NCBI GenBank assembly: GCA_964392445.1
Contig: CAYMPD010000005.1
Coordinates: 29,848-50,663, forward strand
Source of the DNA: an uncultured archaeon
GTDB taxonomy: Archaea; Aenigmatarchaeota; Aenigmatarchaeia; CG10238-14
Direction: 5' to 3'
DNA length: 20,816 nucleotides
Every line of letters begins with the position of its first letter. The stretch's first letter is position 1. Positions 1 through 7,217 of the stretch are shown here, in pieces. The notes under the pieces are model-generated. The model saw nothing but the letters and a program-made list of their open reading frames with translations, did no database searches and was not told where the DNA came from. A program made the position numbers and the translations under genes.

Positions 1-240
1 TGTTGTAGAGGTCATGCTTGGAATATAGTTCAATTACCCGGTGAAAATAGGTGGTTAATTATGGACACTACTGGAAATGATAAATCTTATGTAATAAGTA
101 GTTTTCCGAAATGGGGTTATGATTACTGTTCCGCTCTTGGTGTTTTTAATGGTGAATCACTTGATGAAGACGGATGTAGTAATGATGCTCAAAAGGTAAA
201 CTGTCCAGGTAGGTCTAATACAATTGGATGTGAGGTGTAA
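1..240 (+). CDS. 3' end of a transglutaminase-like (papain-fold) domain protein, truncated by the window edge
   Basis: Frame 1 is open from base 1 to TAA 238-240 (CCRGHAWNIVQLPGENRWLIMDTTGND...NCPGRSNTIGCEV*). HAWN...W..MDTT matches the His and Asp motifs of transglutaminase-like cores. Not in the ORF track. Confidence 0.75.
   Translation, partial: CCRGHAWNIVQLPGENRWLIMDTTGNDKSYVISSFPKWGYDYCSALGVFNGESLDEDGCSNDAQKVNCPGRSNTIGCEV
232..237 (+). promoter_or_regulatory. Shine-Dalgarno GAGGTG for ATG 245
   Basis: GAGGTG lies 7 nt before ATG 245, inside the last codons of the upstream gene. This favours 245 over the TTG 224 start in the ORF track. Confidence 0.65.
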
Positions 241-244
241 GAAA

Positions 245-1402
245 ATGAAAAATAAAAAAATGATGAAAATATTGGAAATCTTTACAGTTCTTTTAATCTT
301 AAACTTAACTTTGGTATCGGCACAAACACTTAGAGTAACAAAGCCAGTACCAGAAGAAATAAGACTTGGAGATGTTCTAGAGGTTAATATAATTATTGAA
401 AATTTGGAAAATAGGAGAATTGATATTTATGTTAAAGAAATGATTGGGAATGCAGAACCAATTGATCCACCTGAACTTAATCAACCATCATCACCTACAG
501 GCTGTAAATATTGTATGCCGCCCCCTTATTATTCATGGGATATGACTTTACAATCTGAGGAAACTAGAACTATAGTTTACAAAATAAAACCTGTACATCC
601 AGGGGAATTCCTGTTTTCAAGAACTATTGTAACAACTTCAGACGGTGAAACTTATTATTCAAATTTAGCAATCACATATGTAAGATGTAATGAAAACGGT
701 GTGTGTGAAAAGGATTTAGTTGAAAATTACTTTAACTGTCCAGAGGACTGTTCTTCAGGCTCGGAGGATAATGTATGTGATTTAATAGAAGATGGTGTAT
801 GTGATCCTGATTGCTTCGAAGGAGTTGATCCTGATTGTGTAGATCAAGAGCCTGTAATTGAACCTCAAGATTGGCAAAAATGGATATACATAAATTTCAA
901 AGAAGATGAACAAGGAAGAATAACTATTGAAGATGTTATGACAAGTATTGAATTACCCACTATTCCTCAACCCCCAGGTGATTATTATCTGGAGTTTATC
1001 ATGGAAAATGGTACAGTGATAAAGAAGGGTAATTTTGATATAACAAAAGGGAAAATTGTGTTGGAATATTCGGAGGACATAGAAGATCTTGTAGTTAAGA
1101 AAGATAATGAGGAATTGTTAAGATTTGATTTAAAACAGGTTCTTTGCAATCATGACGGTGTTTGTGATGATTCTGAGAACTTTTTCAGTTGCCCGGATGA
1201 TTGTATCTCGGGTTCAGATGATGGTGTTTGTGATGGGATAAAAGATGGAATAATTGATCCTGATTGTAGAAGACAAAAAAAGTTAGAATTAGATCCAGAT
1301 TATTCAAAACCTAAATGGTGGAAATGGCCAGCGATAGCTGTTGGGTTGGTATTATTGATTGTTATTGGAGTTATTGTTATGTTTTGGAGGGAACGGGAGT
1401 AG
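245..1402 (+). CDS. Secreted, C-terminally membrane-anchored surface protein: Ig-like domain plus two Cys/Asp-rich modules
   Basis: Signal peptide (KKMMKILEIFTVLLILNLTLVSA); beta-rich Ig-like segment (EVNIIIENL...YKIKPVHPGEF); two CN.DG.C...EN...CP.DC.SGS.D.VCD...DG..DPDC modules; C-terminal TM (WPAIAVGLVLLIVIGVIVMFW) followed by RERE. Confidence 0.8.
   Translation: MKNKKMMKILEIFTVLLILNLTLVSAQTLRVTKPVPEEIRLGDVLEVNIIIENLENRRIDIYVKEMIGNAEPIDPPELNQPSSPTGCKYCMPPPYYSWDMTLQSEETRTIVYKIKPVHPGEFLFSRTIVTTSDGETYYSNLAITYVRCNENGVCEKDLVENYFNCPEDCSSGSEDNVCDLIEDGVCDPDCFEGVDPDCVDQEPVIEPQDWQKWIYINFKEDEQGRITIEDVMTSIELPTIPQPPGDYYLEFIMENGTVIKKGNFDITKGKIVLEYSEDIEDLVVKKDNEELLRFDLKQVLCNHDGVCDDSENFFSCPDDCISGSDDGVCDGIKDGIIDPDCRRQKKLELDPDYSKPKWWKWPAIAVGLVLLIVIGVIVMFWRERE
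686..1303 (+). repeat. Two intragenic Cys/Asp-rich repeat modules (about 686-838 and 1145-1303)
   Basis: CNENGVCEKDLVENYFNCPEDCSSGSEDNVCDLIEDGVCDPDC versus CNHDGVCDDSENFFSCPDDCISGSDDGVCDGIKDGIIDPDC. Confidence 0.85.
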
Positions 1403-1403
1403 A

Positions 1404-3197
1404 TTATGAGACTAATTTTTCTCTGATAACAGTATAAGCATCATCACTTGTATGATAAACGTAAACTTCCCCTGTTTCAGTATTTATGAATGGCTGAGGC
1501 ATATCAGGCCCGCAAGATTCTTCATCAGTGCTCTGTCCTAATGGGTTTAAATCATATTTTTCCCAGTTTCTTAAATTTTGACTTCTTGCTACCCCCCAAC
1601 CATAAACGTTTTGTTCTTCCGGCCCCCCACAATTCCAGTTCAAAGTACCTCCCTCATAAAACATCCAATAATAACCATTAGATTCTAATATCCTAGGCAT
1701 GCTTCTACTTCCCTTCTCCCAAGAACCAAGACTATTATCAAGTATGTAGTTCCCAGAATGGTGAAGATCAGTCATGCTACTTCCAGTATGATAAGTGATA
1801 GATAATTCAGTATTAGAGACTTTTTCTGCATAAAAAACATACACAGTACCATCAAATTGATAGACGCTAGGAGTTGCCCTAGTTTTACCATCAAATGAAA
1901 ATAAGGCTCCTCTTTTACTCCAAGATTTACCATCACTAGATGTAGCCCAATGTATTCCCTCTGGTGGTTCTTCATAAACCATTGCCCATTCACCATTTAC
2001 TCTAGCAACTGACGGTGCGACGCTAAAATCAGTTCCATCAGCAGCAATAGGATCGGTATTTGTTATCACAGAATCGCCACCATATTTATCAAAAGTATTA
2101 CCATTATCATTTGAAATTGATAAACAAATCTCAGGCCAATCATTTTCATTATAACATCTATGATACATATACATGGTTGAAGGGTTTATATCTGGACGAT
2201 GAACAGCAAAAGCTTCTCTATGACCAGAATTAGGTGGTGGTAAGGGTACTGGATTTTGATCTACAGTGAAATGTGCGTTATGATTCCAAAAGTCAATCAG
2301 TGTCACATCCCCATTTGGTTCTACTGTTGTAGTCGTAGTGGTTTCACCTGCTTCCAAAACAGTTAATCTTGCCTGATCTTCACATTTGGAACCTCCGCCA
2401 TCAGTTGAGCTTGCACGCAAATTATATTCTCCTGGAGAAGGTGGTGTAAACCTACATTCAACGTCACAATTCTTCACAAAACCATCAGGTCCTGTAATTT
2501 CGAGTTTAATATCTTCCCAAGGTGGTGGGGGTGGTAAGTCTGCATCTTGATTATGTACACCAACAGCTTTAACCTCCCTTCCAAATTCAACAATTAGATG
2601 TTGATGTAAAGGATCTGGACTTCCACCTGTAAATGTATGAAATCTAGCTTGAGTTGAATCATAAGGACATGGACCAGAAATTGCAGTGGTTGTAGAAGTG
2701 GTTTCTTCAGAAACATCAGCAAATTGAGCAAACATTCTAACTTGCCCATCTTCTCCCTTTTGCAGTGTTATTCTATAACTCTTAAATCTAACTTTTCCCG
2801 AGATAGTGTTGACCAAAGTTAAAAGACTTCTTTCTTCCACCTCACTTTTTAATTGTATTTCACAATTTAACTGCCGACAATCGATATCATCTCTAAAATT
2901 GATGCATAAATTATTCCCTTCAGATATACCTCTGTCATTAGTATGATCATCGCCGTCATTGGAAGCATATAAGTTCTTGGTTAATCCCGAAAAAGAATGA
3001 GTTTCTGACATTTTTCCTATTCCCGAAGTCTCACAAAAAGAATTAACCTTTGAAACTAACATGTCAAATGATTCCATAGTGGATTGTCTGTGGTTCTCTA
3101 ATGTAATATCCGATACAACCTTAACAAAAAAAGAGAAAAATATTAGTGAAATCACTACTCCACCAACAACCCATATCCAATTTGAAACTCCTTTCAA
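1404..3197 (-). CDS. Pilin-like (class III signal) protein fused through Thr-rich linkers to a five-bladed beta-propeller glycoside-hydrolase-like domain
   Basis: MKG|VSNWIWVVGGVVISLIFF N-terminus; first ~155 aa paralogous to 6375..6899; TTSTTT and TTTTTT linkers; repeated blade motifs APSVARVNGEWAMVYE, TPSVYQFDGTVYVFYA, MPRILESNGYYWMFYEG, MPQPFINTETGEVYVYHT, typical of GH32/43/130-like propellers. TTG start. Confidence 0.7.
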   Translation of the reverse strand: MKGVSNWIWVVGGVVISLIFFSFFVKVVSDITLENHRQSTMESFDMLVSKVNSFCETSGIGKMSETHSFSGLTKNLYASNDGDDHTNDRGISEGNNLCINFRDDIDCRQLNCEIQLKSEVEERSLLTLVNTISGKVRFKSYRITLQKGEDGQVRMFAQFADVSEETTSTTTAISGPCPYDSTQARFHTFTGGSPDPLHQHLIVEFGREVKAVGVHNQDADLPPPPPWEDIKLEITGPDGFVKNCDVECRFTPPSPGEYNLRASSTDGGGSKCEDQARLTVLEAGETTTTTTVEPNGDVTLIDFWNHNAHFTVDQNPVPLPPPNSGHREAFAVHRPDINPSTMYMYHRCYNENDWPEICLSISNDNGNTFDKYGGDSVITNTDPIAADGTDFSVAPSVARVNGEWAMVYEEPPEGIHWATSSDGKSWSKRGALFSFDGKTRATPSVYQFDGTVYVFYAEKVSNTELSITYHTGSSMTDLHHSGNYILDNSLGSWEKGSRSMPRILESNGYYWMFYEGGTLNWNCGGPEEQNVYGWGVARSQNLRNWEKYDLNPLGQSTDEESCGPDMPQPFINTETGEVYVYHTSDDAYTVIREKLVS

Positions 3198-3237
3198 GAT
3201 ACCACTAATTTATTTTAGGATTCCTATAATTTAAATC

Positions 3238-3699
3238 ATGAATAAAGCACAGATGTCATTAGAATATATAATAAAGATTACATTACTCCTGGTAGTCGTA
3301 GTGGTTGCTATGGGGTTGATTCTTGGGTTTTCGGATGATATTAAAGTTGCTGTAAGTTATTTTTTCAAGAATCTTCTTGGCAATGACGATACTGACTATG
3401 ATTTTCCAGAAATAGTTGAGAAAAATAGTTTTAGTCTGGGGGAAGTATCTGTTTACATAGAAAGCTGTCATTCTCTTATGTCATCTTTATCTGAGGATGA
3501 GCAGAGAAATATCGTATGTTATGTTCTTGAAGCTGATGAAACTTTTGATAATTTTGGTCCAGGTGCCGATCCGGGTACTGATTGGGAAAGTGAACTTTCA
3601 TCCTTAGCTTTAGTATCTGATATAGAAGCAGATTTCGACAAAGTTATCATCAAGATCGAGTATAAGGACGTGGGTAACAGCATAATAATAAGTGATTAA
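3238..3699 (+). CDS. Archaeal type IV pilin-like protein with class III signal peptide (QxSxE type)
   Basis: MNKA|QMSLEYIIKITLLLVVVVVAMGLILGF: short basic leader, Q+1, S+3, E+5, then a long hydrophobic helix. Confidence 0.8.
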   Translation: MNKAQMSLEYIIKITLLLVVVVVAMGLILGFSDDIKVAVSYFFKNLLGNDDTDYDFPEIVEKNSFSLGEVSVYIESCHSLMSSLSEDEQRNIVCYVLEADETFDNFGPGADPGTDWESELSSLALVSDIEADFDKVIIKIEYKDVGNSIIISD

Positions 3700-5200
3700 T
3701 TTGAAAGGTGTGGGTTTTAATTTAATTATTTTTAGTAGTTTGGCTATAGTCTCTATAGTTGTTTTTCTTTTGATTTTGAACTCTATTATTCCGAATTTTA
3801 TGGGAAGGAGTCTTTGTAAAGTTTACCACATTATAATAGCTTTTCCTTTACCTAAGCAACTCAAACCCCACATACCCGGGTGTTCATTGTATCCAGAGAT
3901 GGAGAGAATTATCTTAGAAGAGGAATCTAGTAATGCTCAGACTTTAACTTACTATATAGAAAAGTGTTGGGACAAATCCCAAGAAGGTAGAAGTGGACAA
4001 AGTTTTATTTGCTATGAATTATTTCTGAAAAAAGTTCCAAGAGAATTCAATTATGAAAATATTTTAACGGAACTAAAAGACGAAGGAAAAATAGAATGGC
4101 TATCAGGTCCAATAGAGGGGTCAGATATAACAGTTATTATAAAATATAACTCAGAAACTGGAAAGATAGAATTTATAGGTACTGATATAATAACTTCAAC
4201 CACCACAAGTGCTGCCATGATTTCTACTACCACTAAATCTACTTCAACTACAACATCTTCAATAGCCACTACTTCAACTACAACTCCTGGTGCTTTACAG
4301 GTTAAAGTTTTTTTACTCATTTTCAATCCTATTATTGAATCTAATGGAGGTCAAAAATTAACAGAAATTAAAGGCTGGTATGATCCCGAAATATTAACTC
4401 AAAGTTATATACAAGACATTAAAGATGTTAGTGGGAGTTTTGTAGATTACAAAATTGAAGAAAAAATAGAAATAGATGATATTCCAAAGAAAGAAGATGG
4501 GTTTGATTATACTGATGAAATTTATTTAGAATGTACTAATAATCCTAGTTCTTGTCATTCTCCTGATTGGGTTGATTATCATTCGATCCTAAATGATTAT
4601 AACATCTGTAATAAGTTAAATAATGGGAAAATTGATGAACTCTGGATATGGGGTGGGCCCTGGTTTGGTTATTATGAGGCAAGAATGGCAGGTACTGGAT
4701 CATGGTATACAAACGGACCAGTATTAACTGGTACAAGTTGCGATAGACCCTTACATATTATGGGATTCAATTACGAAAGAACGGAAAATTTCATGTTAGA
4801 GTCCTTTTCACATAGAGTAGAAGGTACAATACAACATTTTGTAGGTCTCAGTGAATGGGATAAATTTGATGGGCAAAGATATAGATATTCACATAGTTAT
4901 AATTGTGACCCTAATGATGGTCGTCCTCCCATTGATACTGTAAATGCGCATTGTGGGAATGTTCACTTTACACCGAATTCTCAATGTCATTATGAATATG
5001 ATAGTTCAGAAAAAGTATTGTCTGATTGTGACGATTGGATTAATTATCCTCACCTTATCGGAGCTAAAAAGGAGACAGATTGCACTGAATGGGGTTGTAA
5101 TCATTATGGTTATATGAAATGGTGGTTGAGTCATTTACCAAAAAACTCAGGTGAAACGAACGGGATATTCAATAACTGGTGGAAATATGTCGTAGGTTAA
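3692..5200 (+). CDS. Pilin-like protein plus Thr/Ser-rich stalk plus ~300-aa extracellular domain (putative metal-binding hydrolase)
   Basis: LKG|VGFNLIIFSSLAIVSIVVFLLIL; YIEKCW...ICY motif shared with neighbours; Thr/Ser linker at aa ~164-199; C-terminal domain with DELWIWGGPWFGYYEARMAG, FNYER..MLESFSHRVE, HCGNVHFTPNS, WWLSHLP, NWWKY. Confidence 0.7.
   Translation: MINLKGVGFNLIIFSSLAIVSIVVFLLILNSIIPNFMGRSLCKVYHIIIAFPLPKQLKPHIPGCSLYPEMERIILEEESSNAQTLTYYIEKCWDKSQEGRSGQSFICYELFLKKVPREFNYENILTELKDEGKIEWLSGPIEGSDITVIIKYNSETGKIEFIGTDIITSTTTSAAMISTTTKSTSTTTSSIATTSTTTPGALQVKVFLLIFNPIIESNGGQKLTEIKGWYDPEILTQSYIQDIKDVSGSFVDYKIEEKIEIDDIPKKEDGFDYTDEIYLECTNNPSSCHSPDWVDYHSILNDYNICNKLNNGKIDELWIWGGPWFGYYEARMAGTGSWYTNGPVLTGTSCDRPLHIMGFNYERTENFMLESFSHRVEGTIQHFVGLSEWDKFDGQRYRYSHSYNCDPNDGRPPIDTVNAHCGNVHFTPNSQCHYEYDSSEKVLSDCDDWINYPHLIGAKKETDCTEWGCNHYGYMKWWLSHLPKNSGETNGIFNNWWKYVVG
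4181..4288 (+). repeat. Low-complexity Thr/Ser linker containing two copies of CTACTTCAACTACAAC
   Basis: Encodes TDIITSTTTSAAMISTTTKSTSTTTSSIATTSTTTP. Confidence 0.8.
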
Positions 5201-5216
5201 TTATAGAAGTGATATA

Positions 5217-5762
5217 ATGGAAATCGAAATTATAGGTGCAATTACTATCGGAATATTTGTGTTTATTGTTTCTGTTCTTGTTATTATTTCTTTTAGCTAT
5301 GATATTAGGTTAAGTTTTATTAGTAAAATAAAAGAAACGTTCAGTAATTTATATTCTCAAATTTTTGGTCGGGAATATTACAACATTTGTCAGGCTTATG
5401 ACGGGGATTATATTTCCTTTAATGACTTTGGGATTTTATTGAATGCTTACTACAATCAAAAATGTAAAGATAGAAAAACAAGTGTTATACTAAGTTTTTC
5501 TCTTTCCAAAGAAGATGTCAAAGAAATTTCAAAAAAGTTAGAGATGGCAAGAGAAGGCGAATTAATTTACTATGGTCCTGCGGATGAACCTTTGGGAATT
5601 GGTGGGATAATAATTGATACTAGAGCGGATTATGGTGATTATGCGTTCAAATTTAAAGATAATGTTACTCTTTGGAATGATGGTTCTCCTGAAAAAGATA
5701 CTCTGTTGAAATTAACAGGTATAAACTGTGATGTTTATGCGAATACTTGTGATCCCAGATAA
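5217..5762 (+). CDS. Membrane-anchored pilin-like or accessory protein
   Basis: N-terminal hydrophobic helix (MEIEIIGAITIGIFVFIVSVLVII) without a clear basic leader; four Cys; co-oriented within the cluster; GTGAT SD-like motif upstream. Confidence 0.6.
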   Translation: MEIEIIGAITIGIFVFIVSVLVIISFSYDIRLSFISKIKETFSNLYSQIFGREYYNICQAYDGDYISFNDFGILLNAYYNQKCKDRKTSVILSFSLSKEDVKEISKKLEMAREGELIYYGPADEPLGIGGIIIDTRADYGDYAFKFKDNVTLWNDGSPEKDTLLKLTGINCDVYANTCDPR

Positions 5763-5799
5763 TGTAATTAATTTATTCCAAGTTCTCTAATCTTATGGT

Positions 5800-6372
5800 A
5801 TGAAAGGTTTTAGTCAAGGTATCCCGAGTTATCTATATGTTCTGGTCGCTTTAATTGTGGCAGTAATAATGCTTACGATGATTTTCAGATATTCAGACGT
5901 TTTTATCGAGGAGAGAACAAACATTACCATCGGTGGGGATGAAAAATCTATCTCGAAGAGTTTGGCACGAATAATCCAAGAATGTTGGGAAGATAATAGA
6001 ATGGGATTGGAAGATGAATCTAGCATCTGTAAGGAAATAAACTTTGAGGAAAATTTGAAGGTAGAAGAAAAAAATGTTACAGAATATTTGAACTGTGAAA
6101 AATTACCTAACGATGATTGTTATCCTTATCCTGAGACTTCAGCGGATTACGATTGTGGTGAATGTTTCTCAGATTATTTTGGCGATACTGACAAGATACT
6201 TTGGTTTGCTGAAAAAGAAAATACAAGAATAAAAATTAATTATTTTGGTGGATCAAGAAAAATCGTGGTCACTGGGTCTCCTTGTGATAATAGATGTATA
6301 TGTGAGAGAGATTGTAAACAGAAGTGTATAGATGGACTACGAAATTGTAAAGAGTGTTATAATAAGTGTTGA
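5800..6372 (+). CDS. Pilin-like protein with Cys-rich C-terminal tail
   Basis: MKG|FSQGIPSYLYVLVALIVAVIML; IIQECW...ICKEI and IKINY motifs shared with 3238 and 3692; tail CDNRCICERDCKQKCIDGLRNCKECYNKC. Confidence 0.7.
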   Translation: MKGFSQGIPSYLYVLVALIVAVIMLTMIFRYSDVFIEERTNITIGGDEKSISKSLARIIQECWEDNRMGLEDESSICKEINFEENLKVEEKNVTEYLNCEKLPNDDCYPYPETSADYDCGECFSDYFGDTDKILWFAEKENTRIKINYFGGSRKIVVTGSPCDNRCICERDCKQKCIDGLRNCKECYNKC

Positions 6373-6374
6373 TT

Positions 6375-6899
6375 ATGAAAGGAGTTGCAAACTGGATCAT
6401 GGTTATAGGCGGGGTTATAATAGGTTTAACTCTATTCTTTGTTTCAGTTAATCTAATAATCAGACAAATAAGAACAAATCAAAAGCAAACTGTACTTGGA
6501 AAAATGCAGAATTTCCACGGTCAGCTTGTAACTGCTTGTAAGATGGGATTGGGACATAAAAAAAACTATGAATTAACTTTACCAGATACTGTAAGAGCTG
6601 TCTATGTAGGCAATGAGACTTATGAATCACCACCGGACAAAGTTTCTGTGATGGTATCTAATCGAGATAAGGCTGTAGGAAATCATACTTGTATTCAATT
6701 TTTTGATGATAATCTTCCCATTTGCCAGTACATAGGATGTTATGCTTCTATGACTTATATGGGATCTCCTTCTTTGAAATCCAACTTACAGACCTTAATT
6801 TCTCGAATAAAGGGTGAGTATCCGGTTTATGAATACACTGTGGAGATAGAAAAATCAGATGAATATTTCTTGGATGTCACTGGTGGACTGGGAAGATAG
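6375..6899 (+). CDS. Pilin-like protein (class III signal), paralog of the N-terminal domain of 1404..3197
   Basis: MKG|VANWIMVIGGVIIGLTLFF. ATG 6375 is preferred over GTG 6366 because it aligns with the paralog's start. Four Cys align with the paralog. Confidence 0.75.
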   Translation: MKGVANWIMVIGGVIIGLTLFFVSVNLIIRQIRTNQKQTVLGKMQNFHGQLVTACKMGLGHKKNYELTLPDTVRAVYVGNETYESPPDKVSVMVSNRDKAVGNHTCIQFFDDNLPICQYIGCYASMTYMGSPSLKSNLQTLISRIKGEYPVYEYTVEIEKSDEYFLDVTGGLGR

Positions 6900-6935: not shown

Positions 6936-7217
6936 ATGAGGACTCTGAAGAAACTAATTTTAATGATTTTTTTAATATTTTTGTTAGTGGGATTGGATAT
7001 AGTCTTTTCGGCTGATATCTGTGATATACTCCCTGACTTGGCTTTCTGTGTTTCTAAAAAGAAAACCTATACTTTCATAACAAAACCACCAGAAGAAAAC
7101 CCAAAACCAAAAGAATCTACTACACCAAATATATGCAAAGTACTGCCATGGTTGCCTTTTTGTAAGTATTCTGGATCAGTTCAAACGGGAGAGATTGTAA
7201 AAATAGATTTTTCTTAG
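6936..7217 (+). CDS. Small secreted protein with duplicated ICxxLPxLxFC motif
   Basis: Signal peptide MRTLKKLILMIFLIFLLVGLDIVFSA; ICDILPDLAFC and ICKVLPWLPFC separated by a Pro/Thr/Lys/Glu-rich spacer. Confidence 0.65.
   Translation: MRTLKKLILMIFLIFLLVGLDIVFSADICDILPDLAFCVSKKKTYTFITKPPEENPKPKESTTPNICKVLPWLPFCKYSGSVQTGEIVKIDFS

Follow-up and report, generated by a model that had tools for sequence, protein, structure and literature searches.

Bacteria are known to mount working domains on type IV pilins. In these modular pilins a functional module is grafted C-terminally onto a small pilin module. Streptococcus sanguinis PilB carries a vWA domain and PilC a lectin, and a survey counted 264 architectures, a few of them with predicted peptidase modules (Raynaud et al. 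2021, PMC8179133). That survey was confined to bacteria, and 'archaea' appears nowhere in the paper. In archaea, class III signal peptides are established on solute-binding proteins and were surveyed in 2026 (PMC13705601); these bindosome proteins are believed to sit on a base of the type IV filament kind. Here we analyze six adjacent genes, G1 to G6 (1404-6899), in a window of DNA from an uncultured, small-genome archaeon of DPANN type (Aenigmatarchaeota). The window is the whole 20,816-nucleotide stretch G000:C5:29848-50663, part of contig C5 of a genome (G000; 1.2 Mb, 54 contigs, 95% complete). With moderate confidence we propose that these genes and their upstream neighbors serve to display hydrolases: pilin-like carriers would bear the enzymes, a prepilin peptidase would process the carriers, and platform proteins of the locus would mount them.

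How does this locus compare with bacterial modular pilins and archaeal bindosome proteins, its closest precedents? Like the former, it has functional modules grafted C-terminally onto a small pilin module, and both occur in many architectures. It also differs in several ways. The leaders here are archaeal, with K or R at position -2, and lack the IPR012902 N-methylation motif; no sequence relation links the two sets of carriers; hydrolases, not adhesins, make up most of the cargo; and several slots per operon are loaded, differently in sister species. The resemblance is one of design, not of family. In the bindosome the cargo consists of solute-binding proteins tied to ABC transporters, whereas here it consists of enzymes. 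Furthermore, a full globular pilin-like head lies between helix and cargo, and the genes stand behind dedicated platform genes. The 2026 survey describes DPANN loci as scattered and leaves enzyme fusions unmentioned (PMC13705601).

Two further systems share features with the locus. The Epd-type (system 1) archaeal pili of Methanococcus maripaludis have several minor pilins (PMC3875500, PMC13705601). As in that group, several different pilin-like genes occur per system, and one of ours, G2, has the QxSxEY-type leader that is typical there. Known Epd pilins are small and bare, whereas the carriers here may be loaded. System-1 pilins have been reported in many DPANN genomes (PMC13705601). DPANN 'dark matter' islands combine TadC and an ATPase with many unrecognizable signal-peptide proteins, which were read as divergent pilins (Makarova, Wolf & Koonin 2019, PMC6393860). 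Our locus likewise joins platform-type genes to divergent pilin-like proteins, but carrier families, enzyme modules and cargo exchange were not described for those islands. Among the papers that could be searched, none deals with archaeal pilin-like carriers with enzyme modules or with slot-wise exchange of cargo.

An earlier note on the window, made from its sequence alone, had read the six genes as a candidate 'armed pilus' built from two pilin-like paralog families, each with bare and enzyme-carrying members. Below we show that the pilin-like carriers, bare and loaded, hold up well; the filament or heteromeric tip complex of that reading goes further than the present evidence.

Results

Leaders and platforms

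In the class III signature, positions -2, -1 and +1 matter: a basic residue is typical at -2, G or A stands at -1, and about 20 hydrophobic residues follow (PMC3387779). Read directly, five of the six genes (G1, G2, G3, G5 and G6) carry such leaders, as the earlier note had claimed: KG/VSN, KA/QMSLE, KG/VGF, KG/FSQ and KG/VAN (the slash marks the expected cleavage point), each followed by some 20 hydrophobic residues. The K and G are invariant across the nine rows of the family-B alignment (A2). None of these five leaders matches the bacterial N-methylation motif (G/FTLIE type); they are of the archaeal K-G or K-A type. When a loose class III pattern was scanned over 1337 crude open reading frames of the whole genome, 47 matched, and 14 of these fall within C5:10921-37064, a stretch of 25 genes (Fisher p = 2e-15). 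G2, small and bare, is a candidate core pilin. Pfam and NCBIfam returned nothing significant for G3-G6, and the Pfam class III signal family (PF04021) does not match G1, G3, G4, G5 or G6.

The locus as a whole measures about 26 kb and is type IV filament-like in its make-up; the six genes, all that the earlier note saw of it, are its downstream end, or last third, and form the second half of module 2. Upstream on contig C5 lie two paralogous platform proteins of TadC/PilC type (690 and 707 residues, 37% mutual identity). Behind each platform gene runs a row of pilin-like genes, and several of these have additional domains (vWA, HExxH-type, transglutaminase-like). Platforms of this type occur in 59 of 61 related genomes. 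Genome-wide, there are three matches to the A24 prepilin peptidase family (PF01478; contigs C21, C16 and C26), five to the T2SSE ATPase (PF00437) and six to PF00482, two of the last being those just upstream on C5. Prepilin peptidase, ATPase and TadC, on which a pilus reading depends, are all encoded, the peptidases and ATPases away from contig C5. A third related platform adjoins a 762-residue ATPase on contig C13. In one relative (G021), the ortholog of this ATPase (65% identity) and its platform are found 8.6 kb from an orphan platform with family-A and G2-type carriers.

The surroundings of the platforms vary. In two sister genomes (G001:C72 and G003:C2), ABC-transporter genes and a small gene directly precede the 707-type platform. 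In G000, about 20 kb (C5:6102-25700) separates the two; module 1 and the second platform lie in it, together with pilin-like genes that bear vWA domains, and it is a lineage-specific expansion in this genome. Four further class III-like clusters are spread over contigs C1, C10, C12, C13 and C17, three of them adjoining an ATPase-platform pair. Some of their genes are long (626, 670 and 878 residues), so loaded carriers are probably not confined to contig C5.

Two carrier families

The carriers fall into families that end where the cargo begins. Family B comprises the N-domain of G1, G6 and a gene at C5:19859 (BLASTP 1e-11 to 1e-17). Profile comparison confirms the family (hhalign 99.3% between the G1 carrier module and the G6 group). 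The four aligned cysteines first noticed in G1 and G6 are confirmed as well, with C58, C109 and C120 invariant or nearly so. Family A, proposed as G2, G3 and G5, stands for G3 and G5 (hhalign 96.4%), to which the slot-1 paralogs are added (99.1% with G3); G2 is only a distant member, at 87.6% to the G3 group over the globular part. Families A and B and G4 have no mutual relation detectable by hhalign. A place for G4 in either family was considered and rejected; its sole hhalign hit (58%) spans nothing but the membrane helix. The alignments A2 and A4 define the carrier families for systematic searching.

Where do the longer members depart from their paralogs? Threonine-rich runs begin at residue 166 of G1 and residue 168 of G3, the very points at which the bare G6 and the 157-165-residue orthologs of G3 end. 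It is therefore correct that one member of each family runs past the end of its paralogs on a Thr-rich stalk.

Long genes joined at low-complexity threonine codons might be artefacts, either assembly chimeras or read-through, and the bacterial origin of the closest relatives of the G3 cargo would suit a chimera as well. Yet both fusions are single open frames with conserved archaeal neighbors on both sides. The G+C content of the cargo (0.34-0.38) and of the carriers (0.31-0.34) lies inside the range of the window (0.28-0.38). Equivalent in-frame fusions occur in dozens of independent assemblies. We give the artefact explanation almost no credence, and the chance of chimeras, which the earlier note had allowed for, has not materialized.

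Predicted fold of the carriers

An AlphaFold2 model of G6, built from 68 sequences, has a mean predicted local distance difference test score (pLDDT) of 94.2 and a predicted template modeling score of 0.84. It consists of a single helix of 56 residues (4-59), hydrophobic in its first half and amphipathic in its second, followed by six strands. This predicted architecture is the textbook pilin 'lollipop' (as described in PMC8179133). The model of the G3 N-domain, of lower confidence, has a kinked helix (5-49), a second helix with the conserved cysteine motif, and a beta-sheet. The doubt whether these N-domains are pilin-shaped at all is thus eased by the G6 model, though fold searches single out no solved pilin; pilin identity rests on the predicted architecture together with genomic context.

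Cargo of G1

The G1 cargo is likely a glycan-acting enzyme, judging from its sequence matches. It passes the Pfam cut-off for GH32N (25.0 bits against 22.1) and just misses that for GH43 (31.6 against 32.2), which its closest homolog, P0122, passes with 33.9 bits. It matches the Thermotoga invertase 1UYP (E 4e-5), and its language-model (Atlas) neighbors fall in GH130, GH32 and GH43 clusters. In the alignment of the cargo family (A5), E29, D37, E110, E111, E216 and D266 are invariant; these charged residues look like an active site.

In other Aenigmarchaeota, propellers of this type (63-64% identity) follow an N-terminus that is pilin-like but different from that of G1; G000 itself has a bare gene similar to this N-terminus on contig C12. 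Parts of P0137 and P0138 match the middle domain of G1 (about 115 residues). For one cargo domain, the closest homolog with a name is that of a Candidatus Aenigmarchaeota archaeon.

Cargo of G3

The G3 cargo (about 300 residues) has 163 homologs, mostly bacterial, the best at E 1e-101. The domain either stands alone or is fused to SLH, dockerin, PG-binding, PEGA or Ig-like domains; no Pfam family is assigned to it in any of these homologs. It is modeled with a pLDDT of about 97, and Foldseek, VIA and a PDB profile search yielded no convincing solved relative. The earlier idea of a protein-acting domain has accordingly found no backing in Pfam, in PDB or in a clear fold match. An assignment as zincin or metzincin was rejected: HExxH is missing, and adamalysin-like folds appear only at Foldseek E >= 6e-3 and VIA Z <= 6.6. 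H374, E377 and H425 are nearly invariant (an HxxE...H pattern), from which we would guess at a putative metal-dependent hydrolase.

Two database proteins, P0022 and P0029, carry a G3-type domain behind bacterial-type prepilin N-termini (G/FTLIE-like, with Glu at +5). It appears that the same module has been mounted on pilins in both archaea and bacteria.

Exchange of cargo between sister species

We compared the locus with its counterparts in three genomes of the same genus (G001, G002 and G003). Gene order is common to all four: platform, slot 1, G1, G2, G3, G4, G5, G6. The cargo sits on different slots (Table 1).

Table 1. Lengths, in residues, of the carriers in five slots of four genomes
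Slot	G000	G003	G001	G002
Slot 1	732	183	434	184
G1	597	680	314	about 155
G3	502	165	162	157
G4	181	474	412	471
G5	190	about 186	317	203

Only the G2 and G6 slots are small in all four (G2 orthologs have 140-145 residues). G4, bare in G000, is loaded in the other three, with cargo that in two of them has a weak likeness to met-zincins. The slot lengths display directly the swapping that the earlier note expected at homologous loci. Because sister species have other enzymes, or none, at the same slots, the subunits act as exchangeable carriers, which probably bring digestive enzymes to the cell surface.

In G002 the ortholog of G6 (L023:6660-7250) is bare and ends in a Thr-rich stub of about 20 residues, followed by a stop codon. 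Similar stubs occur in the database members P0157, P0159, P0165, P0200 and P0279. Such stubs without cargo point to gain and loss at the linker; by its sequence, each looks like a scar left by lost cargo or a site where new cargo could land. A rival explanation of the whole system would be export resembling type II secretion, in which the pilin-like module serves only for targeting and the cargo is released by cleavage of the Thr-rich linker. Long disordered linkers and bare carriers with stubs (the G002 ortholog of G6, P0157, P0159) would be natural products of such release, but the stubs are encoded in the gene and end at stop codons, which argues for loss at the gene level and not for proteolysis. 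No dedicated linker protease is evident, and to our knowledge the substrates of known type II secretion systems are never fused to pseudopilins. We consider release of this kind improbable.

Distribution of carriers and range of cargo

Exchange is not confined to the genus. A family-B profile was searched against 1.84 billion cluster representatives and matched 223 of them, always at the N-terminus. Among the 150 matches listed, 81 lack cargo and 61 are longer than 300 residues (about 40% cargo-bearing). The extensions in this list include Peptidase_M28 (six), C25 (five), C1 (two), GH5 cellulase (two) and transglutaminase core (two), as well as pectate lyase, M64, M15_4, propellers, PKD and cohesin; mostly, then, the cargo consists of proteases, glycanases and lyases. 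Under a rule of 50% mutual coverage, the 64 loaded family-B representatives contain at least 29 cargo classes. Single-linkage clustering was dropped in favor of this rule, having chained 37 proteins via short common segments. Individual cases illustrate the range: a close relative of G6 (P0140) bears a pectate lyase, and a G3-type carrier (57% identity) bears an M23 peptidase. Within the phylum sample, family B is patchy (70 of 371 genomes, 30 of 170 genera), with about a third of the matches in long frames. To judge from these domain assignments, the range of cargo (M28, C25 and C1 peptidases, GH5, pectate lyase) would fit digestion of polymers at least as well as attachment to a host.

Organization of the window

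Table 2 lists the features of the window. The six open reading frames were recovered just as the earlier note had listed them. G2-G6 are tightly packed on one strand, where no overlap or gap exceeds 37 bases, and G1 is divergent from them.

Table 2. Features at the downstream end of the locus, in window coordinates
Feature	Position	Strand	Description
Slot-1 carrier, 3' end	1..240	+	full gene C5:27889-30087, 732 residues, family A
Sec-signal accessory protein	224..1402	+	C-terminal membrane anchor, two Cys/Asp-rich repeats
G1	1404-3197	-	597 residues
G1 cargo	1404..2324	-	five-bladed beta-propeller, GH43/GH32/GH130 type
G1 stalk	2325..2702	-	Thr run 166-171, Pro-rich middle domain of about 115 residues, second Thr run 286-291
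G1 carrier module, residues 1-165	2703..3197	-	class III-type leader MKG/V, hydrophobic helix, family-B head, 4 Cys
G1/G2 divergent intergenic spacer	3198..3237		40 base pairs, A/T-rich, TATA-like words in both orientations; putative divergent promoter region
G2	3238-3699	+	153 residues, bare, leader KA/QMSLEY
G3	3692-5200	+	502 residues
G3 carrier module, residues 1-165	3692..4186	+	family A, leader LKG/V
G3 Thr/Ser-rich linker, residues 166-200	4187..4291	+	disordered in model
G3 cargo, residues 201-502	4292..5200	+	nameless conserved extracellular domain
G4	5217-5762	+	181 residues, bare, separate family, atypical leader ME..IG/A
G5	5800-6372	+	190 residues, family-A carrier, bare except for 30-residue Cys-rich tail
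G5 C-terminal tail	6280-6372	+	nine Cys, beyond the family-A head
G6	6366-6899	+	177 residues, bare family-B carrier, modeled reference for the pilin-like fold
Secreted protein	6936-7217		93 residues, two copies of a D/N-IC-D/K-(I/V)LP...FC motif

Several features lie outside the carrier and cargo modules proper. The slot-1 carrier has a large insert, and its C-terminal end bears a transglutaminase-like H..W..D motif. The G5 ortholog in G001 is a 317-residue form in place of one with the Cys-rich tail. The motif of the small secreted protein downstream of G6 resembles the N-terminus of a 1930-residue protein (C14:2992-8784). The Sec-signal protein has no match in the Pfam search; its repeated motifs read C..DC...G..D..CD...DG.CDPDC. 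It has paralogs at C5:21264 and C5:23425, is present once or twice per module, and has orthologs beside carriers in G001, G002 and G003. A role as accessory or scaffold protein is possible.

Discussion

We infer a course of events from known archaeal class III signal peptide proteins. Each carrier would be exported and then cut after K-G or K-A by one of the three A24 prepilin-type peptidases, while its hydrophobic N-terminal helix would keep it in the membrane. The platform of the locus, with an ATPase encoded elsewhere, would then mount it into a short pilus or a bindosome-like surface assembly. A C-terminal module could be attached to any carrier slot through a Thr/Ser-rich stalk, which is probably glycosylated. 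In G000 the loaded slots among G1-G6 are G1 and G3; their putative hydrolases would be held off the cell surface, where they might act on polymers or on the envelope of another cell.

A number of observations weigh against this reading. G4 has a hydrophobic helix, but its leader lacks a basic residue at -2, a trait conserved in its orthologs. G2 scores 17.1 bits against PF04021, below the gathering cut-off of 23.7, and the T2SSF scores of both platform proteins on C5 are at the Pfam cut-off. A T2SSE ATPase is found nowhere on contig C5, nor in the locus in G000 or the rest of the genus, and there is no obvious abundant major pilin. With the G6 model, Foldseek gave no match at E <= 0.001. The best Z in VIA was 4.5, the solved pilins 6xxd_A, 8pfb_G and 8tum_e reached only 3.2-3.5 over 93-95 residues, and the output of both searches was OB-fold-like and coiled-coil noise. 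Bulky modules on several subunits fit poorly into the body of a filament. Finally, the aspartate of the GH32 RDP motif aligns with an alanine in G1 (the blade register is uncertain), which leaves the activity of the G1 cargo uncertain.

Some of these points are just what one would expect of plain membrane-anchored ectoenzymes and small membrane proteins. The helix would then be a signal anchor, cleaved or uncleaved, and the threonine stalk would span the S-layer; there would be no filament, and the TadC-like genes would serve another pilus. Bulky domains on most slots suit anchors better than filament subunits, and this alternative stays alive because no ATPase lies in the locus and the fold hits are weak. 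What an anchor has no need of is a conserved K-G or K-A at -2 and -1, or a continuous helix of 56 residues packed to a conserved cysteine-bearing head. Nor does it account for the fixed order of seven carrier genes behind a dedicated platform across the genus, or for a platform kept in nearly all relatives. We judge simple anchors to be a rather unlikely explanation, though one to be taken seriously, and continue to favor display of hydrolases on mounted, pilin-like carriers.

A bolder version of the display model can be put forward. Each platform with its seven ordered carriers might build a multi-subunit pilus tip, or a short filament, of socket subunits. Enzyme and binding modules would move from slot to slot, from one carrier family to another and even between domains of life, as with the G3-type cargo, which sits on archaeal class III carriers and on type IV pilins of ultra-small bacteria. 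This is a tentative proposal, and we think it somewhat doubtful. If it is true, small-genome archaea would own an extracellular tool kit that evolves fast and can be reloaded, with which to digest polymers or open the envelopes of hosts.

The finding bears on protein families as well as on organisms. Alignments A2 and A4 make such carriers systematically findable, and the G3 cargo represents a widespread extracellular domain family without a Pfam name or a solved structure. If display on these carriers is real, the 'modular pilin' idea, shown only in bacteria, and that of functionalized archaeal type IV filaments, shown only for solute-binding proteins, would both extend to the display of enzymes.

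DPANN archaea are poor in metabolic genes and are believed to subsist on other cells or on what is left of them. If our reading is correct, a pilus-type machine with exchangeable proteases, glycanases and wall-cutting enzymes would provide a concrete and testable answer to the question of how they gain access to food or hosts.

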